A stretch of 64,000 bases of DNA, from the IMG/VR virus record IMGVR_UViG_3300046008_001858; one strand, written 5' to 3'. This document shows positions 1,667-38,236 of the stretch, one piece after another (position 1 is the first letter of the stretch; every line of letters starts with the position of its first letter). A program made the translations under genes and the position numbers. The DNA is from an uncultured virus (IMG/VR IMGVR_UViG_3300046008_001858) (lineage: Duplodnaviria > Heunggongvirae > Uroviricota > Caudoviricetes). Under the pieces are notes generated by a model. The model saw only the letters and a program-made list of their open reading frames with translations. It was not told the origin of the DNA and made no database searches.

Positions 1667-1686
1667 TTTTACATATTCTCCCTTGG

Positions 1687-3114
1687 TTATCTTGTTCTTA
1701 TTCTACCTGATAAAAGCTCTTGCTGAAAGAATTTAAATCTTTTTTCTTCTTTTTTTAGGTTTTGCTCTTCTTTTTCTATTAAATTGTCTGATTTAGTTAA
1801 TAATGTTGCTATTAGAGTTTGCTCTAATATGTTTTTTGTTAAAATTAGTTTTGAATTATTTAATGTTTTTTGATTCATTAATGGTGATCCAAAAGCATTT
1901 CTTCCTGCATTTAAGATTGAATATATTGGTAATATATAATAAAAATATTTTAAATTAACATTTTTATTAGTTTTATAATCAAATCCCATAATTGCTTCAT
2001 TTGTTACCATATTATCAAATTTTGTAAATCCAACCCTTCCAATTGACAATTTAAAGCTAAATAATAAACTATTTTTTGAAAGCATCTGTTTTTTATTACT
2101 TATAGTTGAAATGTTAATTGTTTTTTTATTTTCAACAATTATATCTTGTAAATCTGAAATATTAATCCATTTTACATTTCCAATATAATTATTATCTATT
2201 GCTGTTGAAGGAGTAAATCCTACTACACCAATTAAATTATCACTTAATTTTTCTACTTTCCAATCAATAGGAATTTCAAAAATTCGTCCATTAATTTTAA
2301 CTTCTTTCCAACTCAAATTTTTATAAAATTCAATTTTAGAATCAAAATCAATATTTAACCAATTTTCAAATTCTTCTTGCTTGCCGTCAACAATATCAAT
2401 TTTAACATCTTCAACCTTATCTTCCCCATAAACCATTGGTTCATTTTCAGCATTTAAAAGAATTTGTTCTAATAAACCTAAAGATAAAGCTTCACCAGTA
2501 GCTTTTTGTGTCAAACGAATTCTCAATCGGCCAGACAACAATTCTTGTTGAAAATATTTTCTTTGTTTTTTAAGTTTTGAAATTTTTTCTTTTGTGTGTT
2601 CAATTAAATCTTCTTGCTTTGTTAGGATGGATGCAATTCTTGTTTGTTCTTCGATTTCTGGTGTTAAAATATCTAAATTTTCAAAAGTATTCATTCTTAA
2701 AGAAGGAACTGTTGATCCAACAGCATTTCTTCTTAAAACTTCATTTAAAGAATTTAATTTATATTTCATAAAATGAATATTATCAATAAAATTAGACAAA
2801 GAATATGCTCTTTGGTGAAGATTATATTTACCACTTATATATCGTGGTCTAAAATTTTGACCTTCTCCTGGGAAAATTAAAGCTTCATTATCAAACAAAA
2901 ATTTATTACTTTTTTTTATCGACACTGATCTATCGAATAAAGGATAAATACCGTTTTCTTCATTATCTTCAGCATTAGCTTTTCCACTTTTTATAACTAC
3001 ATTTCCTTTTAATTTTTTAACATCCCAATCAACAGGAATAGAAACAACACTACCATTAACCTTCTCTTCCTTCCACTCTGTATTCCGATACAATCCCAAT
3101 TCACTTAAAGACAT
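1687..3114 (-). CDS. hsdS: Type I R-M specificity subunit
   Basis: Two TRD repeats (IPVDW/IPIDW, EQTRIASIL/EQTLIATLL, FQQELLSGR twice); lies between hsdM and hsdR. Confidence 0.93.
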   Translation of the reverse strand: MSLSELGLYRNTEWKEEKVNGSVVSIPVDWDVKKLKGNVVIKSGKANAEDNEENGIYPLFDRSVSIKKSNKFLFDNEALIFPGEGQNFRPRYISGKYNLHQRAYSLSNFIDNIHFMKYKLNSLNEVLRRNAVGSTVPSLRMNTFENLDILTPEIEEQTRIASILTKQEDLIEHTKEKISKLKKQRKYFQQELLSGRLRIRLTQKATGEALSLGLLEQILLNAENEPMVYGEDKVEDVKIDIVDGKQEEFENWLNIDFDSKIEFYKNLSWKEVKINGRIFEIPIDWKVEKLSDNLIGVVGFTPSTAIDNNYIGNVKWINISDLQDIIVENKKTINISTISNKKQMLSKNSLLFSFKLSIGRVGFTKFDNMVTNEAIMGFDYKTNKNVNLKYFYYILPIYSILNAGRNAFGSPLMNQKTLNNSKLILTKNILEQTLIATLLTKSDNLIEKEEQNLKKEEKRFKFFQQELLSGRIRTR

Positions 3115-3116
3115 AA

Positions 3117-5540
3117 TTAAACCTTTTCTTCTGTTATTTCCAAAACCAAGTCAAACAATCGATCCATTTCAGCAGTTTCAAACTCAATTTCGTTTCTGAT
3201 AACAATCATATCATCTTTAAGCTTAAACGGAGATATAATCTCTTCTGGTTCATCTTTAAATACATATCGCTGAACAGATAAATTAAAATCATTTTCAATA
3301 ATTTCGTCAAGTTCAACATAACGAGATAAACCTTCTTCTTCAATTCTTCCAAGATAATTAACATGAGTATTTTCTTCTTGCCACTCATTCAATACACCTT
3401 TTTTAATAAATTCAGAAGAAGAATTAACCATAAAGATCTTACCTTTATCACAATCTTTTTTGTTTTTATTTAAAATCCACATAACAACAGGAATCCCAGT
3501 TGTTTGGAACATATTTCCAGGAAGAACAACTAACCCTTCAATCAAATCTTCAGCAATTAAAGCTTTTCTAATTTTTTGTGTTGAATCTTTAAACAAAGTT
3601 CCCAAAGGTAGAACAACTCCAGCCTTACCATTTCTATTCAACAAATCAATAATTGTCAATAAAAAAGCAACATCGCCATCGCCTTTTTTAGGAACTCCAT
3701 ACTGCCAACGTCCAGTAGAACCATTTACTAATGACTCATTCAAAGCAAACTCATAGCCATAATCTTTCAATCCATAAGGAGGATTAGCAACAATACAATC
3801 AAACGTTCCTTTATGAGTTCCAATATTATCTTTATATTCTGTAATTGAATTAGCATGGTAAGAAATAGCATTTTGAATTTCTTTTAAAGATAAATTCAAT
3901 CCACCCATAATGTCTGCATTTTCACCAATTTCTTGTGAAACGATAGTAATTTTTTGATTCAAAATTCTCATTACGTCAGGATTAGATTTATCTGGATGCT
4001 CTGCAACATATTTCTTTTTCAATAAATCAAATGATTCAACTAGAAAAGATGCAGATCCTGCAGCTAAATCACCAATTTTAAAGTTTCCATTTTCTGGTAA
4101 TTCCAAATCCAATAAAGGTAACAATTTTTCAATTAGTTCTGTAGGTGTAAAGAATTCTCCACCTTTTTTACCTGCAGATTCAACAAATGTTTCAATAAAA
4201 TACATATATGCTTGAGAAAAAATATCTTGAGAAGCGTTTTCATACGTAAGTTCTAAGTTAGAGAAAATAGTACAAATATTAAGGAAAACATCTTCAGGAA
4301 CTTTTTTACCATCTTTAACTTTTCTAACAAAATCAAAAGTATCAAACATTTTTGTTACTAACGTAGAATTTGAATCTTCAGTTAAAGATTCAACAATTTC
4401 AATCAAAAACTCTGGTTTTGTTCGTGCAGATGTTTTTAACATTAATTCAGGAAATAAAGTTAAAGAAATTTCACGTTCTTCTCCAGAAGTATTTTCTGTA
4501 AATGTCATTAAATCATCCCAAGTAATACAATACCATTCAGTTCCTTTTTTAGTTTCAAAAAACTTATCCTCATTACGATAATCTTCAATTTTTTCAATAA
4601 ATGGATTTTTAATCCCAGACAAAAGATCATTATCAACATGATTATTCAATTCGTGTAAAATATATTCTTTTCTTAAGTCAATCATACGCTTAAGAAACAA
4701 GAATGGGATACCAAGACGTAGATAATCCATTGTATCATCTAATTTTGTTCGATCTCTAATTTCGTCAGCAACAGACCACAATAGATCAGTAATATCCTTT
4801 AAAGTAACGATATTAATTTCTTTTACTCCATCCAAAATTGTTTCTTTTAATTCAACATAAACAGAACCATCTAAAATTAGATTACTATTTTGAATAGAAT
4901 CTTTCTTAATATTTGTAGCTTTACCACTGTTAATAATTTTAATTGTTGAATCTTTCATTAAATAAACATTATTGAGATAGTCAACACCAAAAGATACCGT
5001 AGATTCTTCTTCATCTTCTTCATTTGGTTCAAATTGTGAGATACTATAATTATTAATAAAAAAAGTTTTATCTTGAATTGTATAATAATCTTCTGTAATT
5101 TTTGTAAGAATAACATCTTGTTTTTTTACTTTAATTACAATTCCTTCTGGAGTTACTTCAAATACTGAAATATTTGAACCTTTTTTCAAGGCAGATGTAA
5201 TATTAAATAACTCTTCATTATCCAACAAATAAAGAGATTCTGTATCTGAAATATAAATATTATTAATATCAATTTCTTTTTGGAGGATTTTACCAGAAAT
5301 AAATACAGGCTCTACAACAGTTACGAACGGCTGTTCTAATACATCTTCATATGAAAAAATTGAAAAAATTTCATTTTGGATAACTTCAACAGGTTCTTTT
5401 GTTTCTTTTGAAATAAAATTTGTTGCAGGAGTTTCTTGATAAGTAGTTAAGTCATCCCATACTTTTAAGATGATATTGTCATTTGAGTTATATGCTTTTT
5501 CAAAATAAATAGCATCTTTGGTTAAGAGGTTGATTGTCAT
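3117..5540 (-). CDS. hsdM: Type I R-M N6-adenine methyltransferase with long N-terminal extension
   Basis: LWSVADEIR, GEFFTP, motif I DLAAGSASFL, motif IV NPPY, C-terminal NDFNLSVQRY. Confidence 0.93.
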   Translation of the reverse strand: MTINLLTKDAIYFEKAYNSNDNIILKVWDDLTTYQETPATNFISKETKEPVEVIQNEIFSIFSYEDVLEQPFVTVVEPVFISGKILQKEIDINNIYISDTESLYLLDNEELFNITSALKKGSNISVFEVTPEGIVIKVKKQDVILTKITEDYYTIQDKTFFINNYSISQFEPNEEDEEESTVSFGVDYLNNVYLMKDSTIKIINSGKATNIKKDSIQNSNLILDGSVYVELKETILDGVKEINIVTLKDITDLLWSVADEIRDRTKLDDTMDYLRLGIPFLFLKRMIDLRKEYILHELNNHVDNDLLSGIKNPFIEKIEDYRNEDKFFETKKGTEWYCITWDDLMTFTENTSGEEREISLTLFPELMLKTSARTKPEFLIEIVESLTEDSNSTLVTKMFDTFDFVRKVKDGKKVPEDVFLNICTIFSNLELTYENASQDIFSQAYMYFIETFVESAGKKGGEFFTPTELIEKLLPLLDLELPENGNFKIGDLAAGSASFLVESFDLLKKKYVAEHPDKSNPDVMRILNQKITIVSQEIGENADIMGGLNLSLKEIQNAISYHANSITEYKDNIGTHKGTFDCIVANPPYGLKDYGYEFALNESLVNGSTGRWQYGVPKKGDGDVAFLLTIIDLLNRNGKAGVVLPLGTLFKDSTQKIRKALIAEDLIEGLVVLPGNMFQTTGIPVVMWILNKNKKDCDKGKIFMVNSSSEFIKKGVLNEWQEENTHVNYLGRIEEEGLSRYVELDEIIENDFNLSVQRYVFKDEPEEIISPFKLKDDMIVIRNEIEFETAEMDRLFDLVLEITEEKV

Positions 5541-5706
5541 TGTAAGTCCTTGTTACTTTTTATATGTATTATTTTAACTTAATAAACATAAAATGAAGCT
5601 TAAGATTATTGTAAATAGCATTAATTATTATATATTTCAATAGATTTAAACTTTTTATAAAAAGTGCGACAGTGTCGAACGTATTGAACTATTAAAAGAA
5701 AGACTT

Positions 5707-6768
5707 TTATTTCTTAGTTTCAATAAAATCTGAAACCATTTCAAACAACTCTTTGTTATGGATAATACATTCACATAATGCGTCAAAAGAACAAAAAGTT
5801 TTAGCATCTTTTGTTAATCCAAGAGTTAATCTTTGTGATTCTATATTTAAAATATGACGGATTGAATTATTATAATAACCATTGTCAAAAACTTGAAAGT
5901 AATTTTGTTTATGACCTTTTAAAATTTTTAAAAAATTATTAACTGATATTCTATCATAATTACCATTACCAGCATTAGGTAAAACACTCATTAATAAAGC
6001 CTTAAATTCTTCAATATCAGCCAACTCTTCTGATATTAATTCTTCTCCAAAAAAATCATTAATTAACATTGGCTCAAATGTTTTTGCTATATTAATTGAT
6101 ACACCCTCTTCACTTCGTTCGAGCCCTTGCGGTATTTCTCCAGAACAAAAATTAGCACTTAAGTAAATAATGTCTGATTGTAATGCATTTACTTTTGAAT
6201 ACATTGAAAAATATTTTTTTGACTTTTCCATTTTTTCATTTTGATAAGAAATATAATCATTAATTGAAATTCCTTCTAAATAATGATTTTTTGTCATTGA
6301 TATAGTTGTTCTATTTCCATCTTCATCTTCAACTATATAATCATTTTTTCTTTTGGAATTAGTAGTATCAAGCTCTTTAATAATATGATAAATATTATTA
6401 TGAGAAACTATACAATTATTATTTCTTATTTTTAATAAAAAATCATCTCTTTGATTCGATAAATAAGAATTCCAAGTATAATCAATTGAACTGTCTGAAA
6501 ATACTTCATCTCTATTATTTTCTATTTTAAGTAAAATAACTTTCATTTGTTTTTGAATTTTCAATATCTCTCGATATATTGCAATATTTCTTTCCGTAAA
6601 AGGATAAAAAGCATTCTCGGTATTATAAATTTCACATAGTGATCCGTCATTAATATAAGCAAAAACTTGTCTACCAAAATGATAATTTTTTATTGAATTA
6701 TGTAAAAATAGCATTGGTTCAGAACCTTGATTTTCAACATAAAATCCTTGTACTTTATCTGTAAACAT
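5707..6768 (-). CDS. Hypothetical protein, tandem paralogue of 6755..7825
   Basis: Shares MFTDKVQGFYVE, ISEELADIEE and ALCECIIHNK with neighbour. Confidence 0.85.
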   Translation of the reverse strand: MFTDKVQGFYVENQGSEPMLFLHNSIKNYHFGRQVFAYINDGSLCEIYNTENAFYPFTERNIAIYREILKIQKQMKVILLKIENNRDEVFSDSSIDYTWNSYLSNQRDDFLLKIRNNNCIVSHNNIYHIIKELDTTNSKRKNDYIVEDEDGNRTTISMTKNHYLEGISINDYISYQNEKMEKSKKYFSMYSKVNALQSDIIYLSANFCSGEIPQGLERSEEGVSINIAKTFEPMLINDFFGEELISEELADIEEFKALLMSVLPNAGNGNYDRISVNNFLKILKGHKQNYFQVFDNGYYNNSIRHILNIESQRLTLGLTKDAKTFCSFDALCECIIHNKELFEMVSDFIETKK

Positions 6769-7825
6769 TTATCACATCCTTCATTTTATTGTTTTTTTTA
6801 CAATATTCTATATAACTTGATACGTATTCAAATAATTTTTTATTATGAATAATACATTCACATAATGCATGAAAAGAACAAAATGCTTTAGCATCCTTGA
6901 TTAATCCATATGTTATTTTTTGATCTTCTGAATGTAATATTTGCCGCCTTGAATTATAATATTCTTTAACAAAAAGTTGATTATAATTTTGTGTATTACC
7001 CTCTAAATTAAATAAAAAACTACTAACTGATATTTGATTATAATGAAGACGATAAGGATTTGGTAAAATACTTATTAATTCAGCTTTAAGTTCTTCAATA
7101 TCAGCTAATTCTTCTGATATTATCTCTTCTTCTTCTAATAAATCATTTATATACATATATTCAAATGTTTTTGCATCCTCAAATGATAAACCTACTTCTC
7201 CAAGACAAAAATCAATACTTAAATCAATAACTTTTGTATTTAGTTTTTCAAATTCTGATTGCAGCTCAAAATATTCTTTATTATATTCTTCAAGTTTTAT
7301 TTGATAGTCAATACATTCTTGTAGTGATACATCTGGTAAAAAATATGTTTGAATCATACATATGCTTATTTTATCACCATTTATATCTTCACATATAAAA
7401 TCATTTTTTCTTTTTGGATTTGTTGTATCTTGTTTTTTAATAGTATAAAAATTACCATATTCAAAAACAAGGCAATTTTTCTTTTTTATTTTAGATAAAA
7501 ACGAATCTCTTTCTTTGGTATTATATAATGTCCAATTATAATCAGGATCTAATAATGATTTTTCATATTCATTATCATCCATTTGTAATAATAACTCATT
7601 TATTTTCTTTTCAATTTTCCAAATTTCACGATATTTAGCAATATTAGCTTCTGTGAATGGATAAAAGCCTGTATCTAAATTGTATGTTTCGCAATAAGAT
7701 CCGTCATTAAAAAAACCAAAAACTTTTCTACCAAAATGATAGTCTTTCAATGAATTATGTAAAAATAACATTGGTACATAATTGTGATCTTCTACATAAA
7801 ATCCTTGTACTTTATCTGTGAACAT
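6755..7825 (-). CDS. Hypothetical protein, tandem paralogue of 5707..6768
   Basis: Long ORF, AAGGA RBS, end-to-end similarity to neighbour. Confidence 0.85.
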   Translation of the reverse strand: MFTDKVQGFYVEDHNYVPMLFLHNSLKDYHFGRKVFGFFNDGSYCETYNLDTGFYPFTEANIAKYREIWKIEKKINELLLQMDDNEYEKSLLDPDYNWTLYNTKERDSFLSKIKKKNCLVFEYGNFYTIKKQDTTNPKRKNDFICEDINGDKISICMIQTYFLPDVSLQECIDYQIKLEEYNKEYFELQSEFEKLNTKVIDLSIDFCLGEVGLSFEDAKTFEYMYINDLLEEEEIISEELADIEELKAELISILPNPYRLHYNQISVSSFLFNLEGNTQNYNQLFVKEYYNSRRQILHSEDQKITYGLIKDAKAFCSFHALCECIIHNKKLFEYVSSYIEYCKKNNKMKDVINVYR

Positions 7826-7947
7826 TATGTATTTCCTTGATTAATATAATTTAATATTATTTTAACACATCTAATCTTATAAAAATATAAATTTTTTATT
7901 CTAAACCCGCAGGGCTGAATAAGCGTAGCTTATGAAGGGAGTTTATT

Positions 7948-8193
7948 ATGTCACCTGTTGATATAGTTGAATGTTATGTTAGTTGTTCATCTTCTGTTCC
8001 AAAAGAAATATTTGTAATTTTCAATAAAGTACAAGAGGTTTTTGAAACAGATGAATTTTATAGTTCCGAAATGGAATTAATTGTTTTTGGAGATTTTTTA
8101 ACTGAAATTGAAGAAAATTTATCGGACGATGAAATTTCTGAGCTTGATAAAGCTTGGGAAGATATTATTGATAAAATAGTTGAGAAAGATTAA
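7948..8193 (+). CDS. Small acidic hypothetical protein
   Basis: GGGAG RBS; D/E-rich 81 aa. Confidence 0.75.
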   Translation: MSPVDIVECYVSCSSSVPKEIFVIFNKVQEVFETDEFYSSEMELIVFGDFLTEIEENLSDDEISELDKAWEDIIDKIVEKD

Positions 8194-8451
8194 TTTCTTT
8201 TTCAACTCATAGCTTTTAGTTAATAAAAATATTAAAATGTAAACTGTTGGTTTATAAAATATACTTTATATAAATTAAATGTTTAACTATAACTATTATA
8301 GTTATCTTTATTGAGATTTCAATTTTAAAATGGAGCCTAAAATGGTATATCTATTTGCAAGAACCGATTCACGAGGTGTTATTTTAAAAAAAGTTGCTTT
8401 CATAAAAGCTAAAAATAAAGAAGAGGCACTCCAAAATCAGATTCTGAAATA

Positions 8452-9330
8452 GCAGAATTTATTTCTCAAATTTCGAGAGCATTACTTCACTTACCATCTT
8501 ATGTAATTACACCAAAAGAAGTTGAAGAATTAGAAATTACTATTATTAAAAATAATATTCAAAATTATGTTTATGTTGATAAAGATTCAGAAATAATTAG
8601 ACAAACAATTGCAAACAATATATTACTCGGTGATAATATATTATTGATTGCTCATTCTCAAGGAACTATATATGTCAATATAGTTTATGATAAATTAGTT
8701 GAACAAGATATTTCAACACTAAATAATACAAAGATATTATCTATAGCAGATGTTGCTGGATATATGCCAAATGGAGATTGGATATCTTCTTATGAGGATT
8801 ATGTAATAATAGCTGTAAAGGCTATATTTACATGTGTAGATTTTAATATATTTGAATTTACAAATCCTGGTCATTCATTAATAGGAACATATTTAAAAGA
8901 AGGTTCTTCAATTTTAACTGAATTTGAAAGAAAAGCGAAATTACTATTAGAAACATTTGAACAAAAACAGTTTGATAACACATTTACTTTTACATTTTAT
9001 GGATTATCTTCAACACAAAATCTTTCTGGAATGAGCATGCCATATATCAAAGATCTAAATAGAAGTAAAACATATTCTCAATTAAGTCCAGAGTTTAATA
9101 TAAGTGTATCAGGCGCTGATATGGTGTATAAACTAACATTGCCTACGAATCAAGACTTAAGTGGCGAATACCTACTTGAATGGACGTTTAATGACGTAAA
9201 TATAACTAAAGGTCAAATTCAATGTGGAAATAAAACAAAAGATATAAATGTTACAAAATATTTAGTAAATAATTTTGGTAAAATTGTTTTAACTAAAAAT
9301 TTAAATACTTATGATTGTAACTTTAAATAA
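8452..9330 (+). pseudogene. 5'-truncated paralogue of the lipase-like gene 13056..14207
   Basis: Homology (AEFISQ..ALLHLPSYV, AHSQG) starts at ~8452, upstream of the tracked start; signal peptide and ~90 aa missing; abuts an unrelated short ORF starting at 8342. Confidence 0.8.
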
Positions 9331-9344
9331 TTTTTCTTAAAAAG

Positions 9345-9393
9345 AATAACTACCCTGCTTTGCAGCCACTTCGTGGTGAAGAAGGTAGTTATT
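9345..9393. terminator. Branched hairpin between convergent genes
   Basis: AATAACTACC/GGTAGTTATT stem enclosing CTGC-TTT-GCAG and CCAC-TTC-GTGG. Confidence 0.6.
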
Positions 9394-9398
9394 AGAAA

Positions 9399-10358
9399 TT
9401 AAAATCTAAATTCACTTAAAATAGAAGAACTTAATTCTTTCATTTCTTCTTGAAAAATTTCTGATTTTTTTTCAAACTCAGAAATCGTAATTCCCTTATT
9501 TAAAATTTCAAAATCTTCTTCAGGAAGATAACATAAACCGACTTCTTCAAGTGTTCTCAAAGATGTAGCTATGTGAGTTAAAACTCTTAAATCAAATGCT
9601 TTCATATTCTCGTTAGATAACATTTTTATGGAAGCATTTCTATTCTCAATTACACTTGATATAATTGGAAACAAATCTGTACCATCTGTTTCGATAAAGA
9701 TAGTTTTCATTCCAGGAAGAAATGTATTACTTACACTGACATATCCGTAGACGCTGTCAGAAATAATGATACTAATTCCATTTACAGCAACAGGAACAAT
9801 TACTTCTTCAACAACCACTTGTGCAGCAACAGGAGCAATTACTTCTTCAACAACCACTTGCGTAGCAACAGGAGCAATTACTTCTTCAACAACTACTTGC
9901 GTAGCAACAGGAGCAACTACTTCTTCAACAATTACTTGCGTAACAACAGGAGCAATTACTTCTTCAACAACTACTTGAGCAGCAATATAAGGAATAACAT
10001 CTTTAAACGCTTTGTTAAAGCGAAAATTTCCTCTTTTAAATTCAACAAGAACTTCACGAAGTTTTCGATCTTCGATTCTTCCTTCGCCGAAATTATTGAC
10101 TAAAACCATTGTTTTAACAGGATCAATTCCACCTTTTTTACTAAAAAAAGTTTTATTTTCAATTTCTTGAATTTTTATTCCTTTTTTATTTTTATCTTCC
10201 AATAAATTGTGAAGAAAAGCAATTGCTGCTGTTAAAGACATAAACTCAGGGTTTTTGCCTCTACTATCACCTTCGGTGATTATTGACTCATCTCTCATAA
10301 TTGAATGATAATGAGCTTTTTTGACTATTGTAAATCCGTTAAATTCTCTTGAAGACAT
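9399..10358 (-). CDS. Hypothetical protein with internal 13-aa repeats
   Basis: GGGAG RBS; five copies of QVVVEEVIAPVAT-type repeat. Confidence 0.85.
   Translation of the reverse strand: MSSREFNGFTIVKKAHYHSIMRDESIITEGDSRGKNPEFMSLTAAIAFLHNLLEDKNKKGIKIQEIENKTFFSKKGGIDPVKTMVLVNNFGEGRIEDRKLREVLVEFKRGNFRFNKAFKDVIPYIAAQVVVEEVIAPVVTQVIVEEVVAPVATQVVVEEVIAPVATQVVVEEVIAPVAAQVVVEEVIVPVAVNGISIIISDSVYGYVSVSNTFLPGMKTIFIETDGTDLFPIISSVIENRNASIKMLSNENMKAFDLRVLTHIATSLRTLEEVGLCYLPEEDFEILNKGITISEFEKKSEIFQEEMKELSSSILSEFRF
9787..9981. repeat. 39-bp tandem repeat x5 (coding)
   Basis: Unit GCAACAGGAGCAATTACTTCTTCAACAACCACTTGCGTA with few substitutions. Confidence 0.95.
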
Positions 10359-10474
10359 GAGAACTCCCTTTAAAAGTTTGGCCTTAATTAAGACTCTTGA
10401 ATATGTTATAAGATTAAAATATCAATATATTTAAACACCTTTTAAATAAAAATAAAATATTTTTATAAAAACCC

Positions 10475-10503
10475 TTGACATTCATTTAAAAATATGATAG
10501 AAT
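10475..10503 (+). promoter_or_regulatory. Sigma70 promoter driving a non-coding region
   Basis: TTGACA-17 bp-TAGAAT with extended -10 TG. Confidence 0.85.
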
Positions 10504-10511
10504 TACCGAAT

Positions 10512-10598
10512 AAATATTCTCAAGCCAGCTTACCAAAGCTGTCTTTTGTTCTCGAAATAAAGAGCCATAACATTAAGTGTGTTGGCTTGAGCATATTT
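10512..10598 (+). ncRNA. Cloverleaf small RNA, C4/CI-like antisense candidate
   Basis: Outer stem CTCAAGCCAGC/GTTGGCTTGAG with three inner hairpins; 10527..10550 is 22/24 complementary to 10651..10674. Confidence 0.65.
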
Positions 10599-10734
10599 TA
10601 ATAGTTTTAAAAAAGTAAATTTTTATTTATTTATTTAAGATTATTAAGGAAACAAAAGACAGAATTGGTAAGCTACTTTTTTGTTTCCTCATTAAAAATC
10701 ATAATCTGACTTATAATTGTTAAAAACGATAGGC

Positions 10735-11220
10735 GTATAATATAGCGTCTGGTGAGAGTATCTTAAACGATGCAGCGACTTCTGATAAATTCGATGCACT
10801 ACAAAACCCGTTAAGAGAAAAAATAGTAGAAGTATATTCCGTACCCAAAATTTAGTGGATATGTGTTAAATTAAGCAAATCAAAGTAATTGAAAAACTTA
10901 AATTAATCGATAATCATTAAATTGCGAAAGCAAATGGCAGTTATAAAACTGGCGGTGTGAGCAAGCAAGAAATTGTGAAGCCAGAATCTCGACAATGGCG
11001 TCATGGAAAAGTAATCAGTAATTTCCCAAACACACATCTGTGATATCTAAACCTATATAGGCATGATATTAATTATTTACAGCGTGACCGAGGATATAAG
11101 GTGTGTTTAACGATACGGATCGATACTATGCGAAACGACGGATTGATAGGTTTGCGTTTTTCATTTTTTTGAAAAAAGCCAAACTTCTCCTCTTCTCTCC
11201 ACAGCTCGCTCTGGATTAAT
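10735..11220 (+). ncRNA. Candidate structured non-coding tract (ncRNA or origin-associated RNA)
   Basis: No ORF of 60 aa or more, visibly GC-richer than flanks, TTGC-GAAA-GCAA tetraloop, nested stems at 11028..11109. Confidence 0.5.
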
Positions 11221-11227
11221 ATATATA

Positions 11228-11608
11228 TTATTCTTGATAAATCAATCCTTGTCGTTGCTTTAAGATTCTTCCTTCATAATCAGTGCTTAATAAATCAATT
11301 AACCATCTTATTCTGAACTGACACGAAAATCGATCTGAAATATATTTTAAATCAGTTTCTATATTCTTATAACCGTAAGTTTCACGTCCAGTTCGTCTAT
11401 CAAATTCTTTTTTATCATAAAATTTCCAAAGAACTATTAACGACTTAAACTCTTTCAATAAAGAATCAATTGTTTCAACAATATTTTTATTAGTCATTGA
11501 CTCAAAAATTTTACTTATCTTAAAATAAGCAATATCAACTTTAACTGACTTATTTTTAATGTTATTTTTCTTAAAATAATTTTTTAAATTATTCGACCGT
11601 TTAATCAT
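11228..11608 (-). CDS. Basic hypothetical protein
   Basis: 126-aa ORF with AAGG RBS and upstream TATAAT. Confidence 0.55.
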   Translation of the reverse strand: MIKRSNNLKNYFKKNNIKNKSVKVDIAYFKISKIFESMTNKNIVETIDSLLKEFKSLIVLWKFYDKKEFDRRTGRETYGYKNIETDLKYISDRFSCQFRIRWLIDLLSTDYEGRILKQRQGLIYQE

Positions 11609-11910
11609 TTTTAACCTTTCAAATTTTTTAATTAAAAGATTATAATCTTATTTTGTTTAAACTTTCCTTAAAATTGATAAAAAGCTTTAAACTTAATAAT
11701 CCCAAGACAAAATGTCATACTTCATTAACTCAGTGTCACCACCGTCCATTATTTTTTAAAATAAATTAAGGCTTCTTTCTTAATGAGAATCACTTCACCC
11801 TTATCACAAACCATGCTTCGCAGCCATTATCACTTCGTTCAAGCCTCTTCAGCTAAAGCTTCGAGCCATTTCATGGAGAGCTGCGCTGTTTTCAGGCATG
11901 CGAATAAACT

Positions 11911-12566
11911 TATTATTAAAACTTAAATTAAGTTTAAAATTGATATAATAAACAAAAAAACAGCGTAGCTGCTTAAGCAAAGCGAAGAGGGTGATAAAAA
12001 TGTTTAAATTCATTTGCTCAGTACTATTTTTAGTATTAATTACAGGATGTAGCAACCACGCAGTGGCTGAGGCAAAGCTGAAGGGCACTGCTACTAATTT
12101 ACCAGCAGGATATACTCTTCCAGCAATGCCAGATGAGACACTTAATTCATCCACAATAGCTGGCGTAGATGCAAATGTAAATGGTGTCAGAGATGACATT
12201 GAGATCTTTATTTACACAAATTATTCAAAGCCAGAAGAACAAAAAGTTCAAATGCAAATGGCTAAAAATAATCAATATTCATTATTAAATGTAAAAACAA
12301 AAGAAGAAGTTCATAATTGGTTTAATGATATGGGAAATGCACAAGATTGTCAAATAAAAATATTCGGTTCAAATTCAAATGCATTAAAAGAAGATAATAT
12401 TTTAACAAGTAAAATATTAAATACAGTCGAGCGAGTTAAAGCAGATTTAAATATTAGTTTATTAATGTCAGGAGAAGTTTTCCCACTAATTCATAATGAT
12501 AACCCATGCGAAAAATTTTATTATTAAAACTTAAATTAAGTTTAAAGTTGATATAATAAACAAAAA
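11911..12566 (+). repeat. Duplicated ~48-bp promoter block (11911..11958 and 12519..12566)
   Basis: TATTATTAAAACTTAAATTAAGTTTAAA(A/G)TTGATATAATAAACAAAAA precedes both lipoprotein genes. Confidence 0.9.
12000..12527 (+). CDS. Lipoprotein with Ca-binding-like DxNxNGxRDD motif (copy 1)
   Basis: Lipobox LITGC; GVDANVNGVRDDIE; start set by alignment to paralogue. Confidence 0.85.
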   Translation: MFKFICSVLFLVLITGCSNHAVAEAKLKGTATNLPAGYTLPAMPDETLNSSTIAGVDANVNGVRDDIEIFIYTNYSKPEEQKVQMQMAKNNQYSLLNVKTKEEVHNWFNDMGNAQDCQIKIFGSNSNALKEDNILTSKILNTVERVKADLNISLLMSGEVFPLIHNDNPCEKFYY

Positions 12567-12579
12567 GAAGGTAATAAGA

Positions 12580-13065
12580 ATGTTTAAATTCGTTTGCTCA
12601 GTACTATTTTTAGTATTAATTACAGGATGTAGCGGCACTGCCACTAATTTACCAGCAGGATATACACTTCCAGCAATGCCAGATGAAACACTTAATTCAG
12701 CAACACTTGTTGGAATCGATGCAAATACAAATGGCGTAAGGGACGATGTAGAAATTTTTATTTATACAAATTATTCAAAGCCAGAAGAACAAAAAGTTCA
12801 AATGCAAATGGCTAAAAATATTCAAGAACGATTTTATAATGTAAAATCAAAAGCAGACGGTCATATTTGGTTTGAAAAAATGGGAAATGCGCAAGACTGT
12901 CAAGAAAAAGTATTTGGAACAATTGAAGATGGTTTGAAAGAAAGTAAAATACTCTACAGTAAAACATTAAATACAATGAATAGAGTTGAAGCTGACCTAA
13001 GAATTAGATTATTAATGTCAGGAGAAGTTTTCCCTCTTATTCAAAATGAGAATCCATGCGAATAA
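12580..13065 (+). CDS. Lipoprotein (copy 2)
   Basis: Lipobox LITGC; GIDANTNGVRDDVE; overlaps next gene. Confidence 0.85.
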   Translation: MFKFVCSVLFLVLITGCSGTATNLPAGYTLPAMPDETLNSATLVGIDANTNGVRDDVEIFIYTNYSKPEEQKVQMQMAKNIQERFYNVKSKADGHIWFEKMGNAQDCQEKVFGTIEDGLKESKILYSKTLNTMNRVEADLRIRLLMSGEVFPLIQNENPCE

Positions 13066-14207
13066 TTTTATTTACACTTATTTTTTGTTTATCAATTTTT
13101 GCTAGTGATACAAAAATATTTCATATAAATGGAATTAATACAGAAGAAAATGAAGCTAGAGCAAATTTAACAAAATTAAAAAATACATTAAAAAGTAATT
13201 ATAAAGATCAAAACCTAACATATATATTAGCATATAATGAAACAGGAGTTGGTTTCGCTGATATAATAGATTGTTACAATCAAAAAGTTGCTGAATATAG
13301 AAGAGGAAATCTTCCATATAATATTAGTTTGGCTGAATTCATTTCTCAAGTAACTCTAGCTTTATTTCACCTACCTTCTTATGTAATGACACCAGCAGAA
13401 GTTGAACAATTTGAAATTAATAACATTATTAATAATACACAAAATTATACGTATACAGATACAGATTCTAAAAATATCGTGAAAACTATATCCGATAATG
13501 TTTTACTCGGTAATAATATTTTTATTATTGCGCATTCTCAAGGAACTCTTTATGCAAATATAATTTATGATAAATTAGTTGAACAGAATATTTCAAATAC
13601 AAATAACACAAAAATATTATCTGTAGCAGACGTTGCAGCTTATATGCCAAACGGCGATTGGTTATCTTCAGAAGGTGATCCAGTTATAATAGGAGTGAAA
13701 ATATTTTTTACTTGTATGGATTTCAATTATCTTAAGTTTAATAATTTAGGTCATTCATTAATAGATGTTTATTTAAAAGTAGGTTCAGAGTTATTAACTG
13801 AATTTGAAAGAAAAGCTAAATTACTATTAGAAACATTTGAACAAAAACAGTTTGATAACACATTTACATTCACATTTTATGGATTAGCTCCAGTTACTAC
13901 ACCAGGGATGAGCATGCCATTTATAAAAGATGTAAATAGAAGTAAGTCATATTACGAATGGAGTCCTGAATTTAATGTAAGCGTATCAGGAGCTGATAAA
14001 ATATATAAACTAACATTGCCTACAGATCAAGATTTAAGTGGCGAATACCTGCTTGAATGGACGTTTAGTGACGTTAATATAACTAAGGGACAAATTCAAT
14101 GTGGAAATAAAGTTAAAGACATAAATGTTACAAAATATTTAGTAAATAATTTTGGTAAAATAATATTAAGTAAATCAGGTAATAGTTATGATTGCAATTT
14201 TCAATAA
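13056..14207 (+). CDS. Secreted alpha/beta-hydrolase (lipase-like)
   Basis: Signal peptide, HINGI oxyanion-type motif, AHSQG nucleophile elbow, later D and GHS. Confidence 0.75.
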   Translation: MRIILFTLIFCLSIFASDTKIFHINGINTEENEARANLTKLKNTLKSNYKDQNLTYILAYNETGVGFADIIDCYNQKVAEYRRGNLPYNISLAEFISQVTLALFHLPSYVMTPAEVEQFEINNIINNTQNYTYTDTDSKNIVKTISDNVLLGNNIFIIAHSQGTLYANIIYDKLVEQNISNTNNTKILSVADVAAYMPNGDWLSSEGDPVIIGVKIFFTCMDFNYLKFNNLGHSLIDVYLKVGSELLTEFERKAKLLLETFEQKQFDNTFTFTFYGLAPVTTPGMSMPFIKDVNRSKSYYEWSPEFNVSVSGADKIYKLTLPTDQDLSGEYLLEWTFSDVNITKGQIQCGNKVKDINVTKYLVNNFGKIILSKSGNSYDCNFQ

Positions 14208-14211
14208 AAAT

Positions 14212-14242
14212 CCCTGAAAGGGCTAGCACACTTGTGCTAGCT
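14212..14242. terminator. Double hairpin between convergent genes
   Basis: CCCT-GAA-AGGG then CTAGCAC-ACTT-GTGCTAG. Confidence 0.6.
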
Positions 14243-14732
14243 ATAAAACATCTGTAGTAAAAATAGAAAGCATATCAAAAGATGAATTTTCAGTTCTAAT
14301 TTCTTTAAAATATCGATCCTTTCTTAGAATTTCATTAAATACTTCTGAAGAATAATTAGCAAAAGAACTTGCTAAATTAGTACGATTCTTTCTATCAAGT
14401 TTTAAAAGAAAATTATAATATTTAACAATATTGCGTCCATTTATTTTAAATCTTAAATTTAACAACTCATTATAATCTTCCATTGATTTAGAATAAACAA
14501 TGACCCATTGAACTCGAGGATTATTTTTCTTAAAATCAATTAAATCAGCAGCAGTAACAATACTGTTATCACTTAAAAGATGTCCTGAAGGTAAGTAATC
14601 ATTAGATTTTTCAAACGCATCTTCAGGTACCTCTATTCTGTAATTAGAGTCATTTGTCCAATCACTAGCTTTACATAATCCATTAAAATATTCAACCAGT
14701 GTTCTTGTCTCAACATATTTAGCGAACGTCAT
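14241..14732 (-). CDS. Hypothetical protein
   Basis: AAGGA RBS before MTFAKY. Confidence 0.75.
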   Translation of the reverse strand: MTFAKYVETRTLVEYFNGLCKASDWTNDSNYRIEVPEDAFEKSNDYLPSGHLLSDNSIVTAADLIDFKKNNPRVQWVIVYSKSMEDYNELLNLRFKINGRNIVKYYNFLLKLDRKNRTNLASSFANYSSEVFNEILRKDRYFKEIRTENSSFDMLSIFTTDVL

Positions 14733-14884
14733 TTTTATTTCCTTCAAAATAATTTCCACACTTTCGAATGGATTACTAACTTTTATTATAGTTTATGAAA
14801 TATATTATATATAACAAAGCGTATATAAAAACCTGTAAAAACCCATAAAAAAGGTAAAAACATGTTAAAAATATTTTTATATAG

Positions 14885-16423
14885 CTACGTATTTTTATTA
14901 AATAAATTATAATAAATTATACGAATAAAGTCTTTACTCAATCCTTTTTTTACATTGTATTCACAATAAAAGGAATCAAAATCTAAAAAACTTTCTCGAA
15001 GAACATCTTCGATTAATACATTTTTTATATTTTTTCCTGAACTCACATCTGCATTAATTTCGTATCCACAATTCATACATATAAATTTTTCTTGTGTCTT
15101 CCTATTATTTTTACTTACATAGTGACATTTATTACACTTTTGAGATGTATATTCAGCTGGAACAAAACTAACTGAAACACCACGATTATGTCCTTGACGA
15201 CGAATTCTATTTTTAATAGAATCTAAATTTAAAAATGTTGCTAATCTTCCGTAACTTATTTCTAATTCCTTATTATTTACACGTAATCTACTCCCAACTA
15301 TACTTAAATCTTCTAATGCTATATGATTTATATTTTCACTAATGCAATAAGTTATTATTTCTGATATCTTTTTATCTACTTCGTAGATTAATCTATTTCT
15401 ACTTTTTTGCTTTATTCTTTTCATAAACTCTGTTTCTTTTCTTTTATCTGCTTTTTTTATTATTTTTATTGCTGATTCTTTTATTTCTTTTTCTATATCG
15501 AATGTTTTTAAATTTGATAATGCAAATAAATTGTGTTTAATATTTATATCTACACCAACTTTGAAATCATTATTACTAAAGTCAAATAAATTTTCCTTAG
15601 TTGTCGTTAAATCTATTCTAAATGTATATTCATTTATAAATGTTATTGAATAAGATTTTACATAATCGGCTTTATGATATTTTACAGTTTTTACAGGTAT
15701 ATGTATTTTTTTAGTATTATATGCGCCTAAATTTATAAAGCTTCTTATACATGACTGATTATTTTTATTTCTTCCTATTATTTCTTGATTTACTCTGCTT
15801 TGTGTTGAAAATGTTAATGAATTATACTCTATTTTCTTAGCCCAATATCGTGTAAAAATTCTTTTCGTTCTATTTTCTACTAATTTAAATATTCTTTCTA
15901 ACTTTTTTTGATCCATATTTTTTATTAATTCTAAATAATGTCTATATATTGTTTTTATTTTTTCTATTTCTTTAGCACTAAATTTTGAATTACCTTTTTC
16001 TAGATTTAGCACATAATTTATATGAATTTCTGCTGAGTTCTTATCAATTATATGCTTCTTTAGCAAAAAGTTTGTTAAATTTGTAATTGCTGTCTGCTTT
16101 TTTATATATTTATTTTTACTTTTTTTTAGTATAAAAAACTTCTCTATACCTTTTGTCTTTATTTTATTTATATAATTTGTATATACAGTTTTAATTGCGT
16201 ATTCCATATCCTTATTTATTAATCCTGGAATCTTCATCTTCGTTTCTTGTTTTATTATTTCAAACATATCTGGCAATTCTTTGTTTTCTATCAGATATTT
16301 ATATATAATTTCACTAATATAGTTTCGATATATTCTTAGTGTTGCTGCTTTTTTCTTAACACTATTAAACTTCTTTTTGTTTAATTTATCGGTATAAAAA
16401 AATTTACTTACTATTTCGTTCAT
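14885..16423 (-). CDS. tnpB: RNA-guided endonuclease TnpB family (512 aa)
   Basis: RuvC-I VGVDINIK, RuvC-II ALEDL, YTSQKC..C/C..C zinc ribbon, RuvC-III NADV. Confidence 0.9.
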   Translation of the reverse strand: MNEIVSKFFYTDKLNKKKFNSVKKKAATLRIYRNYISEIIYKYLIENKELPDMFEIIKQETKMKIPGLINKDMEYAIKTVYTNYINKIKTKGIEKFFILKKSKNKYIKKQTAITNLTNFLLKKHIIDKNSAEIHINYVLNLEKGNSKFSAKEIEKIKTIYRHYLELIKNMDQKKLERIFKLVENRTKRIFTRYWAKKIEYNSLTFSTQSRVNQEIIGRNKNNQSCIRSFINLGAYNTKKIHIPVKTVKYHKADYVKSYSITFINEYTFRIDLTTTKENLFDFSNNDFKVGVDINIKHNLFALSNLKTFDIEKEIKESAIKIIKKADKRKETEFMKRIKQKSRNRLIYEVDKKISEIITYCISENINHIALEDLSIVGSRLRVNNKELEISYGRLATFLNLDSIKNRIRRQGHNRGVSVSFVPAEYTSQKCNKCHYVSKNNRKTQEKFICMNCGYEINADVSSGKNIKNVLIEDVLRESFLDFDSFYCEYNVKKGLSKDFIRIIYYNLFNKNT

Positions 16424-16429
16424 TCTTTT

Positions 16430-16458
16430 ATTATATCATTTTTTTACTGATTTGTAAA
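16430..16458 (-). promoter_or_regulatory. tnpB1 promoter, probably leaderless
   Basis: TTTACA-17-TATAAT-6 nt-ATG; no SD. Confidence 0.75.
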
Positions 16459-16695
16459 TATATTTTATACTTTCTTTTCCAACTTCGTTAATCGTTATTT
16501 TAACGCAGCATCGAAGCTTGAACTTCGATTAGAACGCTCTGTTGATAGCTTTTTTACAAAATTTTATAGCTTTCTATATTAAGTATAATAGCCTTAAGTT
16601 AAGTTAAATCATCGTGATTTAACTCAAGGTGCATAATGCCAATCCCTGTATCAGATTTCTATCTGTTACTATTTAGAGTTTTAAAAGGACTTGTT

Positions 16696-16851
16696 ATGAA
16701 ATTTTTTGTATTTTTTATTTGTTTAATGATCTTTATTGGATCATTAGCTCCAGCTGCAAATGATACTGCTGCAACAATAGTTTTCGGATTATTGTCAGTA
16801 TTGACGTTCGCAAGCTTATTTGTGAGCGATGAAGAAGTTGAAAGAATTTAA
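16696..16851 (+). CDS. Small membrane protein
   Basis: AAGGA RBS before MKFFVFF; two hydrophobic stretches. Confidence 0.65.
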   Translation: MKFFVFFICLMIFIGSLAPAANDTAATIVFGLLSVLTFASLFVSDEEVERI

Positions 16852-16916
16852 GTTAAATCTCTATCGTTAAATCGATAGAGTAGTTATTCCATTTTGGATA
16901 GCTTTAATTAAAAATA

Positions 16917-17111
16917 TTATCTGACTCTTTTATTTGAACCAAAATAAACCAAAATAGGAACAATGATAAGAATAGGGATTAATGTTTCAAAATAAGTAAT
17001 ATTTACTGAAAAATATGAATTAATACCAAATCTTAATATTAGGAAAATAGGAATAAGAATAAGACCTATTAGCAAAGGAATTGTAAAAGGGTTGAATTGA
17101 TATTTATCCAT
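16917..17111 (-). CDS. Small membrane protein
   Basis: GGAG RBS; two TM segments. Confidence 0.65.
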   Translation of the reverse strand: MDKYQFNPFTIPLLIGLILIPIFLILRFGINSYFSVNITYFETLIPILIIVPILVYFGSNKRVR

Positions 17112-17208
17112 TATTTAATCTCCAATTTTTAATTGAAGAAGAATAATATCAAATTAAATTTATTTTGATTTAAAAAAGACTAAAAATGATTTAATAACTA
17201 TCAAATAT

Positions 17209-17589
17209 TTATCTAAAAAAGAAAAGAATAACTTTTTTTAAAAATGGAAACTTTTTTAATTTCAAAACAAGTTGAACATCTTCATCGACTAAAGAATCTA
17301 ATTTATCTTTAATATAACTATCACTTCTCCATTGAATCAAATATTCAACTGAATCATGAATTGCTAATGGAAGATGATAATCTCCATCTGAACGTTCAAT
17401 TAAGTGAATATGATTATAATTTACTCCAACTGTATCTGGAACACACAATTCAAATGGAACTCCATATTTTGCTGCTATTTCTGGAACGGAACATATAAAC
17501 ATAGGATTAAACCCAGAATCTCTCTTACTAATAAATAATTCTCTATCTTGATATTTAAAAATATCTGGATATGTTCCCAATGTTTTCAT
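17209..17589 (-). CDS. Hypothetical protein
   Basis: ORF with AAGGA RBS. Confidence 0.75.
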   Translation of the reverse strand: MKTLGTYPDIFKYQDRELFISKRDSGFNPMFICSVPEIAAKYGVPFELCVPDTVGVNYNHIHLIERSDGDYHLPLAIHDSVEYLIQWRSDSYIKDKLDSLVDEDVQLVLKLKKFPFLKKVILFFFR

Positions 17590-17686
17590 TTTTATTTTCC
17601 TTTAATTAACTTTTTATTTCTTATTTAATTATATATTAAATAATCTTAATATTTATTAAAACTAGGAATTACAACAAATAAAATTT

Positions 17687-18421
17687 TTAATTTAAATTCT
17701 TTCTCGTTTGAAAATTTTTATTTTTCTGTCTTTCAAAAAAGTTTTTCATATAATTTTTTATTGTTTCTTTAATATTATCACTTTTCGAAAATGAATCTAT
17801 CCTTGTTAAAAAATGTTTATCAAAAGTTCTTGAACTTAAAAAAGAATGAAATGTTTTAAAAAAAATATCTTCTTTTAATTCAACTACTTTTTCAGTCTCT
17901 GTTATTTTAGAATTCCCAAAACAATATTGATTTTTACCTGAAATTAAAATGAAGAAATCCTTTAGAAATAATTGATCAAATTCTTTTGTTGAAAACATTA
18001 AATTAAGAAAATATATAAACTCTGGTTCAAAAGTATTTGAAAAATCATTAATAAATTCTTTTTCTATTTCATGTATTTTTAAATAAGACAATCTATAAAC
18101 TTCATTAAATAAATATGTAGCATGGATTATATAGTTATAATAAAATAAAGTTTCAGCTTCACCATATTTTAATAAATCTTGATCACATTCAAAATTATAT
18201 TTCAACGAAAGCTTAAAAAGAATTGACGCAAATTGCTTATTTCTAGGAATATTTACAATAACTTCTTCTTTTTCATATTCTCGAGGAATATCAAAAAAAG
18301 ATGGTAAGTCTTTAAGTAAAGGTCTTTGTTTTGGAAAGGAAGGCAATGCTTCAGAAATAGATAGAACTGTATTTCCATTTGTTGGAAAAAACGATTTTGA
18401 ATTTGTTGTAATAATAGTCAT
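17687..18421 (-). CDS. Hypothetical protein
   Basis: ORF with AAGGAG RBS. Confidence 0.75.
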   Translation of the reverse strand: MTIITTNSKSFFPTNGNTVLSISEALPSFPKQRPLLKDLPSFFDIPREYEKEEVIVNIPRNKQFASILFKLSLKYNFECDQDLLKYGEAETLFYYNYIIHATYLFNEVYRLSYLKIHEIEKEFINDFSNTFEPEFIYFLNLMFSTKEFDQLFLKDFFILISGKNQYCFGNSKITETEKVVELKEDIFFKTFHSFLSSRTFDKHFLTRIDSFSKSDNIKETIKNYMKNFFERQKNKNFQTRKNLN

Positions 18422-18564
18422 AATTGAACTCCTTAAATTTTTAAGTATTTGTTTTGGTTTGGCCAGAAATAGAATTTTAACAGAAATAAAGTTTTAAATC
18501 TTTAATTGCTTAAGTAGCTAAAAGTACGTTATTTCTATATTATGGTTTCTCCAAAAAGGAGAGA

Positions 18565-18819
18565 TTAATGCCAGTTGACAGATATTAAATTATCATCTGC
18601 AACTGCATTAATTTGGGCTTTAACTGATTCAACTGTTTCAGTTAAAACAAACTCAAGTTTATTTTCTTTGGCTGAAGATATTTCTTCGGCCATGTTACTT
18701 TTAACTTTTCTAAAAAAGCTTCTAATAACAACATTTTCAGTAAGAACATCGAAGTTAAATAAAACTCTAACTCCATATATTTCTTTCATTTCTGGAACAA
18801 TAATTAAATCGCACTCCAT
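18565..18819 (-). CDS. Hypothetical protein
   Basis: AAGGAG RBS. Confidence 0.7.
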   Translation of the reverse strand: MECDLIIVPEMKEIYGVRVLFNFDVLTENVVIRSFFRKVKSNMAEEISSAKENKLEFVLTETVESVKAQINAVADDNLISVNWH

Positions 18820-18957
18820 AATAAACTCCTTTTAAAAATAAAATTTAATTCGTTATAAGACAATTTATTTATATTTTAATCTATAATGAAAAGATTTAAA
18901 CTAATATAAAGGAATATTCAATTATAATATTATTAATTAAAACAGCAAGGATCTAAA

Positions 18958-19278
18958 ATGATATCAACACAATTAATGAGTGAAGTATTAGGATTAAAAA
19001 TATACTCTGTTAAACAAAAAAGTGATACTGTAATTGAATATACTTTCGATGCTATAGGCGAAACAAGAACTTCAACAATTAATATTTATGAGTTAGCTTA
19101 TAAATGTAAAGAATGGGCCAGAAATAAATATCACCAAAGAATTATGTCCGAAAGCGCTGGAAGTTGCTATATAATTGAAAGCGACGATAAATATTTTTAT
19201 CATGATTCTGAACATGAAAGTGTTTTTAAAGCATGTCAATATATTTTAGAGAATAAAAAAGCAGTTAAAAATGATTAG
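18958..19278 (+). CDS. Array paralogue 1 (MIS-INIYE-EAIF family)
   Basis: MISTQLMSEVL / INIYELAYKCKEWA / ESVFKACQYIL. Confidence 0.9.
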   Translation: MISTQLMSEVLGLKIYSVKQKSDTVIEYTFDAIGETRTSTINIYELAYKCKEWARNKYHQRIMSESAGSCYIIESDDKYFYHDSEHESVFKACQYILENKKAVKND

Positions 19279-19615
19279 TCAAAAATTACTTGCTGAAGTA
19301 TTTAATGAAAATATTTCTACAGACATAAAAATAAAGTATGCTGAAATTGACGGCGTAAAAATGGAATGGAAAGAAGTATGGTTTAACTTTAAAAATTACC
19401 CATTGGATTTTGTTGCTCATAAGTGCAAAGAGTGGGCATTAGATAATAATTTACTTGAATATAAAATTCTTTCTTATAGTGAAAATAAAAGGTTTGTATC
19501 TATAAAATATATTTTTAAAAATCATGTTATTGAAGATTTTGGAATATATAAAACCGATATAAATAAGAGTCTTTTCAAACTTTGTGAATATATTTTAGAT
19601 ACTAAGGATTTATAA
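19271..19615 (+). CDS. Array paralogue 2
   Basis: MISQKLLAEVF / VAHKCKEWA / SLFKLCEYIL. Confidence 0.9.
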   Translation: MISQKLLAEVFNENISTDIKIKYAEIDGVKMEWKEVWFNFKNYPLDFVAHKCKEWALDNNLLEYKILSYSENKRFVSIKYIFKNHVIEDFGIYKTDINKSLFKLCEYILDTKDL

Positions 19616-38218: not shown

Positions 38219-38236
38219 TATTTAAAATACTAATAA

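Follow-up and report, generated by a model that had tools for sequence, protein, structure and literature searches.

A candidate self-pairing leader RNA with a terminator-like end upstream of a conserved noncoding block

An 870-nt gap between two genes (10359-11227) in the 64,000-nt stretch of DNA analysed here (the window) houses a region with a strongly structured predicted RNA. We tentatively read this region as the 5' part of a plus-strand noncoding transcription unit, a self-pairing structured small RNA (sRNA) or leader with an intrinsic terminator, and we hold this to be a possible reading with somewhat less than an even chance of being right. Transcription would start near 10510 from a sigma-70-type promoter at 10475-10503. 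Two complementary arms, called guide and target in the preliminary description of the locus, would pair within the same molecule, and their helix would close a composite hairpin of 148 nt. This helix, followed by the U-run ACUUUUUUGUUU, would have the layout of an intrinsic terminator and would give an sRNA or leader of about 175 nt ending near 10683-10688. The same tentative explanation places the window in an uncultured AT-rich (26% G+C) freshwater bacterium. The strand, the transcript ends and the function in this reading rest on sequence logic and folding energies. The features on which it is built are collected in Table 1.

Table 1. Coordinates of the features in and around the gap, in positions of the window.
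Feature	Position	Strand	Remarks
319-aa gene	9399-10358	-	Orphan; left flank of the gap
Sigma-70-type promoter-like site, TTGACA, 17-nt spacer, TG, TAGAAT	10475-10503	+	11/12 match
Opposite-strand promoter-like site, TTGAGA-18-TATCAT	10494-10523	-	10/12 match; faces the 319-aa gene
35-aa frame	10494-10601	+	Reads SLPKLSFV
P1 domain (earlier "cloverleaf")	10512-10598	+	16-bp closing stem 10512-10527/10583-10598; irregular interior
Small hairpin CAGCUU-ACCA-AAGCUG, then UCUUUUGUU	10526-10550	+	6 pairs, 3 of them G-C; inside the 5' arm
5' arm of the long inverted repeat (earlier "guide")	10527-10560, core 10527-10550	+	From inverted-repeat search and folding
AU-rich apical hairpin	10598-10647	+	Has G-U pairs with no counterpart on the opposite strand
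21-aa frame	10627-10692	-	Reads SLPILSFV after MRKQK
3' arm of the long inverted repeat (earlier "target")	10641-10674, core 10651-10674	+	Pair probabilities of about 1
Hairpin 2	10647-10689 (10647-10659/10677-10689)	+	13 pairs, -11.3 kcal/mol
U-run ACUUUUUUGUUU	10675-10686	+	Directly after the long helix, which ends at 10674; predicted 3' end
Conserved noncoding block (about 500 nt)	10701-11199		G+C 36-42%, above its surroundings
Hairpin near the right edge of the block	11148-11185		16-nt arms, 81%; the block ends 14 nt beyond it
126-aa gene	11228-11608	-	Orphan; right flank of the gap; convergent with the plus-strand leader unit

Results

Two arms close one composite hairpin on the plus strand

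The complementarity of the two 24-nt segments that had been described as guide and target was borne out: the cores of the two arms are complementary at 22 of 24 positions. At 82% the repeat can be followed over 34 nt, and only one of the 70 inverted repeats that the window has within 250 nt is longer; among the 25 listed, the remaining long repeats look AT-rich by eye. The two segments are the only two matches in the 64 kb at three or fewer mismatches, and two or more matches were found in none of 100 shuffles. The 64-kb window holds no further copy of the repeat, and the exact arm pattern occurred at no locus in the viral, genome and metagenome contigs.

When 10509-10700 was folded as plus-strand RNA, it formed one composite hairpin of -57.6 kcal/mol (z -8.21; 0 of 200 shuffles). 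This hairpin spans 148 nt, with the two arms as its closing helix and, as its interior, a three-way junction with an AU-rich arm. The arms pair in cis with a probability of about 1 once position 10674 has been transcribed; 22 of the 24 positions are then paired at 0.68-1.0, and the P1 stem stands at 0. The plus strand folds better than the minus strand. Over 10510-10688 it forms 57 pairs, including 6 G-U pairs, at -57.6 kcal/mol, versus 54 pairs, including 2 G-U pairs, at -44.7 kcal/mol on the minus strand; over the inner stretch 10540-10659 the energies are -33.0 (z -5.2) and -17.5 kcal/mol (z -2.5), respectively. A sliding fold scan across the 870-nt gap gave a single contiguous signal, at 10480-10720, which was also the strongest and peaked on the plus strand; two further windows at 10810-10959 reached z -2.7 to -3.8.

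A promoter-like site precedes the structure and a U-run follows it

A near-consensus promoter had also been claimed for this locus. The site is present and matches the consensus at 11 of 12 positions, but a match of this quality taken alone occurs at chance frequency: the window contains nine matches of 11/12 or better versus 7.8 +/- 2.4 in block shuffles. The site lies on the plus strand about 24 nt upstream of the structure, with a predicted start near 10510, and it gains weight from this position just upstream of the structure and on the better-folding strand. Two other strong promoter matches (11/12 or 12/12), at 16458-16430 and 32909-32881, are found directly upstream of TnpB-like genes, suggesting that this consensus is in use here. 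At the 10/12 level, to which the opposite-strand site of Table 1 belongs, matches are at chance frequency, with 146 found versus 144.9 expected. The plus-strand and minus-strand sites diverge and their -10 boxes overlap; they could be mutually exclusive if both are real.

The U-run comes right after the helix on the plus strand only, and the equivalent position on the minus strand carries no U-run. The complementarity of guide and target is more simply explained as the closing stem of one hairpin that runs straight into a U-run. The locus has a stable stem followed by a U-run on the putative transcribed strand, as in an intrinsic terminator or attenuator, together with a mutually exclusive fold of comparable stability. 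Simple terminator-like sites are enriched in positions 1-20000 of the window (13 versus 3.7 +/- 2.3 expected), suggesting that the organism probably uses intrinsic terminators. A simple scanner for such sites considers loops of 3-8 only; it is blind to the long helix, and at the locus it reports only the small hairpin 10526-10541. As a counterpoint to the terminator reading, a terminator stem that closes a 148-nt insert is unusual, and the same palindrome would be compatible with a function in the DNA itself or with an RNA made from the opposite strand.

Two mutually exclusive folds lie close in energy

The preliminary description had pictured an RNA of about 87 nt, a multibranch cloverleaf with an exposed guide segment. 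An 87-nt domain closed by a stem (P1) was indeed found, with a folding energy of -26.2 kcal/mol (z -4.06; 0 of 200 shuffles) and a closing inverted repeat of 16 nt at 94%, but the cloverleaf itself had no support in the minimum free energy fold. The guide core, 10527-10550, is exposed in part, with a mean unpaired probability of 0.45 in the short RNA. The small hairpin at 10526-10541 reaches -7.8 kcal/mol at a transcript length of 36 and amounts to a weak terminator-like site. The alternative hairpin at the target was recovered as described (hairpin 2, Table 1); it takes up the U-run along with part of the 3' arm, and so excludes the long helix.

Stepwise folding from 10510 gave the hairpin at 10526-10541, then P1 (by 10600), then the AU hairpin at 10598-10647 and then the long helix, which forms as soon as 10668-10674 are available. 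At equilibrium the probability of the long helix is about 1 and that of P1 falls to 0. State A, composed of P1, the AU hairpin and hairpin 2, has an energy of -51.6 kcal/mol versus -57.6 kcal/mol for state B, the long hairpin. The two states thus differ by only 6 kcal/mol, and the findpath saddle between them lies at -19.3 kcal/mol, about 32 kcal/mol above state A. Since the alternative state stands behind such a high barrier, an attenuator-type switch between states A and B is plausible in the folding model. Calculation, or the sequence itself, gave the helices with their energies and showed that they exclude one another; the difference between the strands and the U-run have the same basis.

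In the terminator reading, the 87-nt P1 would fold first during transcription and would hold the 5' arm inside. If P1 persisted, the 3' arm would join the U-run in hairpin 2, no terminator would form, and transcription would read through into 10701-11199. State B would terminate and state A would not, which would make the region a bistable attenuator-type leader. It is from the computed features that we infer promoter activity, the transcript ends, the terminator function and any switching, along with its trigger if there is one.

A conserved noncoding block lies downstream

The product downstream of the leader had been proposed to be noncoding, and this held. No ORF was found on the plus strand after the leader that we regard as credible, and the block at 10701-11199 has no conserved ORF. 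Single-base indels at 10756 and 11007 within the block argue against coding. Its open frames gave nothing above threshold in Pfam, the block itself matched no Rfam family, and its predicted folding is not unusual (z -0.60 and +0.17). It is purine-rich on the plus strand, like the sense strand of the genes here. The hairpin near its right edge could terminate either the plus-strand RNA or the convergent 126-aa gene.

The block is 95-99% identical in other contig types from lake metagenomes and metatranscriptomes, with sharp limits at both ends beyond which the flanks diverge, and it is better kept than the neighbouring protein genes. These contig types align to the window in three stretches only. 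Over 10701-10789 there were 4 differences and 1 gap in the other contig type (DNA runs X2 and X5), and over 10987-11052 there were 3 differences and 1 gap (RNA run X16). A contig of RNA run X23 has at most one difference over 11088-11199 and, beyond the block, at least 9 differences and 17 gap positions over 11200-11329. RNA-library contigs sit at 10764-10966, 10987-11052 and 11088-11329; the one at 10764-10966 is identical to the window, and DNA carry-over is possible for it. In X2 the other contig type has about 1.0 times the depth of the window-type contigs; for X5 the ratio is about 1.8. The other contig types may be paralogous copies or may come from related organisms. Two patterns drawn from the block found no locus in the viral contigs.

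At the 3' end of the leader, 15 of 17 letters of 10674-10689 (the helix end, the U-run and the 3' arm of hairpin 2) are kept in a second contig type, in an alignment made by eye; left of 10701 this contig type shows just 30 loose letters. The letters adjoining 10701 differ, with an indel. In the one RNA run that carries this organism, contigs lie on both sides of 10389-10763; no contig from the two RNA runs compared falls within it, which is not evidence of absence.

The gap lies between orphan genes in an AT-rich window

The G+C content is 23-31% across the whole window, and the standard bacterial code reads the window sensibly. Alternative genetic codes were tried and rejected, as they did not open the gap sensibly. 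The genes on both sides of the gap are minus-strand orphans. A search of 5.8 billion proteins gave two homologues of the 319-aa protein and three of the 126-aa protein, at 60-76% identity. For one homologue of each, the longest contig has the same length (15,751 nt), and the two probably share it. Alignment to metagenome contigs and viral contigs gave no relatives of the 319-aa family, and alignment to viral contigs gave none of the 126-aa family. The predicted structure of the 126-aa protein is all-helical (pLDDT 73.3), with no matches in the PDB at E<=0.001; the model of the 319-aa protein is unusable (pLDDT 32.6). A protein atlas gave no usable match for the neighbouring proteins. Within the 319-aa gene, a 39-nt tandem repeat at 9785-9985 (5.2 copies, 92% matches) encodes repeats rich in V, E, A and P, and this is the sole strongly variable part of the protein compared with its two homologues.

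Genes for type I restriction-modification, two TnpB/Cas12f-like proteins, an MCP, a GGDEF-EAL protein, a PARP-WGR protein and a SIR2 protein are found in the window, together with many orphan and paralogous genes. Searched against Pfam, PADLOC and PHROGs, 12 neighbouring proteins had no significant match except the TnpB-like transposase, and none looked plasmid-like. The 319-aa protein hit phrog_4247, "virion structural protein", in the phage library at E 0.0017, a weak match at chance level, and the other weak match among the neighbouring proteins was to Csx19 (E 0.0054). A blastn search with 10359-11227 gave no match among plasmids or phages. The context of the locus is neither phage nor plasmid.

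Parts of the 801-base stretch 10400-11200 were found in 24 listed runs, which belong to 21 studies and include a possible source of the window. Most are metagenomes of lake water or freshwater; sediment, soil and biofilm are represented by one run each. In runs X2 and X5, contigs agree with the window letter for letter across hundreds of bases. A scan of genome contigs with the GGDEF-EAL protein gave 80 loci in assorted bacteria, at 30-43% identity only.

The locus contains no tRNA or tmRNA, and there is no CRISPR or tandem array near it. The gap has no paralogue elsewhere in the 64-kb window. That it could be a pseudogene of a window protein was considered and rejected, the best tblastn match (E 6.6e-4 in an 869-nt database with 246 queries) being not significant. 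A replication origin was rejected as well: the gap holds no DnaA box, and the 23 boxes of the window, versus 23.0 expected, form no cluster.

Discussion

The region is best read as a structured sRNA or attenuator leader of a known kind that belongs to no family. It resembles terminator attenuators and leader switches, as well as terminator-ended bacterial sRNAs, in having a structured leader behind a predicted promoter. As in attenuators, the helix is followed at once by a U-run, and both an earlier structure and a later hairpin exclude the helix. Unlike in attenuators, the stem closes a 148-nt insert and not a short loop, the locus has no ORF, leader peptide or known aptamer, and a noncoding block instead of a gene lies downstream. 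6S RNA is similar in its length of about 175 nt, in its ends paired as a long closing stem, and in its position behind a strong promoter-like site; however, 6S RNA has a central bubble, whereas the locus has a three-way junction with an AU-rich arm. We rejected 6S RNA because of this architecture and because no 6S model matched at E<=10.

The C4 RNA of phages P1 and P7 and the CI RNA of satellite P4 are antisense RNAs that arise by processing and target complementary sites in the transcript of their own operon. The preliminary description had seen this logic at the locus and had proposed control of copy number, incompatibility or immunity. The locus does combine a small structured RNA with a complementary site some 120 nt away on the same strand, with an alternative structure at the target, and the antisense segment has a single site of 22/24 complementarity in its own transcript. 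By such a mechanism, a P1 RNA of about 90-100 nt ending at AUAUUUUAAUAGUUUU would be released and would pair in trans with 10651-10674, opening hairpin 2 on read-through transcripts, and the downstream noncoding RNA would be stopped or altered. Besides the real complementarity, this agrees with the U-rich stretch after P1, with a 5' arm that is about 45% unpaired in the short RNA, with a favourable trans duplex (-47.3 kcal/mol in the cofold versus -38.1 kcal/mol apart), with the kinetic separation of the alternative state, and with a downstream product that is noncoding and conserved. C4 and P4 CI are also hairpin-like, and passages of PMC5499578 cite them as RNase P substrates, matured by this enzyme from a longer precursor. 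However, Rfam gave no matches at the gathering threshold over the window, and the 7 matches at E<=10 over 10300-11300 were at chance level, none of them to C4, a related family or 6S. The best of these, to a plant miRNA-precursor model (E 0.045), merely reflects the long hairpin. The locus does not look like part of a prophage or satellite immunity region placed upstream of genes under its control, and there is no controlled ORF such as icd/ant; neither phage nor plasmid genes were recognised among the 12 neighbours, the searches of plasmid and phage DNA were negative, and the 64 kb contain no further target site. Pairing in cis within one transcript competes directly with pairing in trans, dominates at equilibrium and explains the complementarity. 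The architecture and a possible trans pairing thus survive from the earlier proposal, but the family assignment and the phage or plasmid context do not, and we consider a riboregulator of the C4/CI kind decidedly unlikely. With no C4 model, no such context and a simpler explanation in cis, control of copy number, incompatibility or immunity is unsupported, if conceivable. A bolder version, which we regard as very unlikely, would make the leader a self-targeting riboregulator, an RNA-based switch for immunity or incompatibility that draws its specificity from the guide/target pair and governs the strongly conserved noncoding RNA 10701-11199. The 319-aa gene, leader, block and 126-aa gene would then be a module that recurs in related lake bacteria or as paralogues, an unrecognised selfish or regulatory element with an RNA core.

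The palindrome could serve at the DNA level, as a pair of inverted protein-binding sites, as a cruciform or recombination site, or as the relic of a small inverted-repeat element beside overlapping divergent promoters. We think this unlikely, although the first arm holds AGCTT-N4-AAGCT, the arm centres are 124 bp apart, arms of 24-34 bp surround an AT-rich spacer, the minus-strand promoter-like site overlaps the plus-strand one, and the island is made of orphan, paralogous and mobile genes (type I restriction-modification, two TnpB-like). A strand asymmetry in folding energy that comes from G-U pairs and a one-sided U-run would be unexpected for a pure DNA site, and there is no cluster of DnaA boxes. 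No second copy was found in the window or the scanned collections and no target-site duplication was seen at the arm ends, and on these grounds a MITE or other small inverted-repeat mobile element was rejected. Somewhat less likely still is a functional transcript on the minus strand. The hairpin would then be the 3' end or insulator of a minus-strand RNA covering the block (e.g. a long 3' UTR of the 126-aa gene), or it would belong to a long 5' UTR of the 319-aa gene, perhaps accompanied by a plus-strand RNA as cis-antisense. Both flanking genes are on the minus strand, this strand also folds well (-46.4 kcal/mol, z -3.98), and one RNA contig from a relative continues past the right edge of the block into the end of the 126-aa gene. 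Nevertheless, the minus-strand fold is 13 kcal/mol weaker than that of the plus strand, its helix has no U-run after it, the only strong promoter match faces the opposite way, and the purine skew of the block is that of a plus-strand unit. A functionless palindrome, left by a local inverted duplication in decaying intergenic DNA, would suit a neighbourhood of orphan proteins and the lack of a family match; we find it improbable in view of three separate helices beyond chance, a well-placed promoter match and U-run, and a 3' end that is partly kept in a second copy. Finally, two short ORFs (Table 1) read the arms in the same frame, and in the 21-aa peptide a basic part precedes a hydrophobic one, as if the arms were diverged convergent copies of one small ORF or a type I toxin-antitoxin pair. 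This would surprise us greatly: neither start has a Shine-Dalgarno sequence by eye, whereas the flanking genes have one, the 35-aa ORF begins inside the -10 box, and in the by-eye alignment the second contig type seems to lack the ATG of the 21-aa ORF.

If the terminator-ended leader is the right reading, an uncultured lineage contributes a further example of a structured sRNA or attenuator leader, which has value for annotation without being a surprise. The block merits more attention than the leader, being conserved, present in lake RNA libraries, and without a match in Rfam or Pfam. A bistable leader gating such a block, if true, would be a compact system for the RNA-controlled expression of a noncoding product.

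Other observations in the window

The two TnpB/Cas12f-like genes, at 14885-16423 and 31453-32874, both on the minus strand, encode a Cas12f1-like TNB domain (E 1.5e-12 and 3.7e-14, respectively) and have no CRISPR array nearby. Three pairs of paralogous orphan genes, none with a Pfam match, lie at 5707-7825, at 11991-13065, and at 8644-9330 and 13056-14207. They encode proteins of 353 and 356 aa, lipoprotein-like proteins of 178 and 161 aa, and proteins of 228 and 383 aa with a common C-terminal domain. A SIR2-family protein is encoded close to a WGR-PARP_reg-PARP protein at 37427-40217, and this set of PARP domains appears unusual for a bacterium. Upstream of a lipoprotein-like gene, the stretch 11780-11990 is G+C-rich (up to 47%) and has no convincing ORF; it contains a terminator-like hairpin on the minus strand at 11974-11958.
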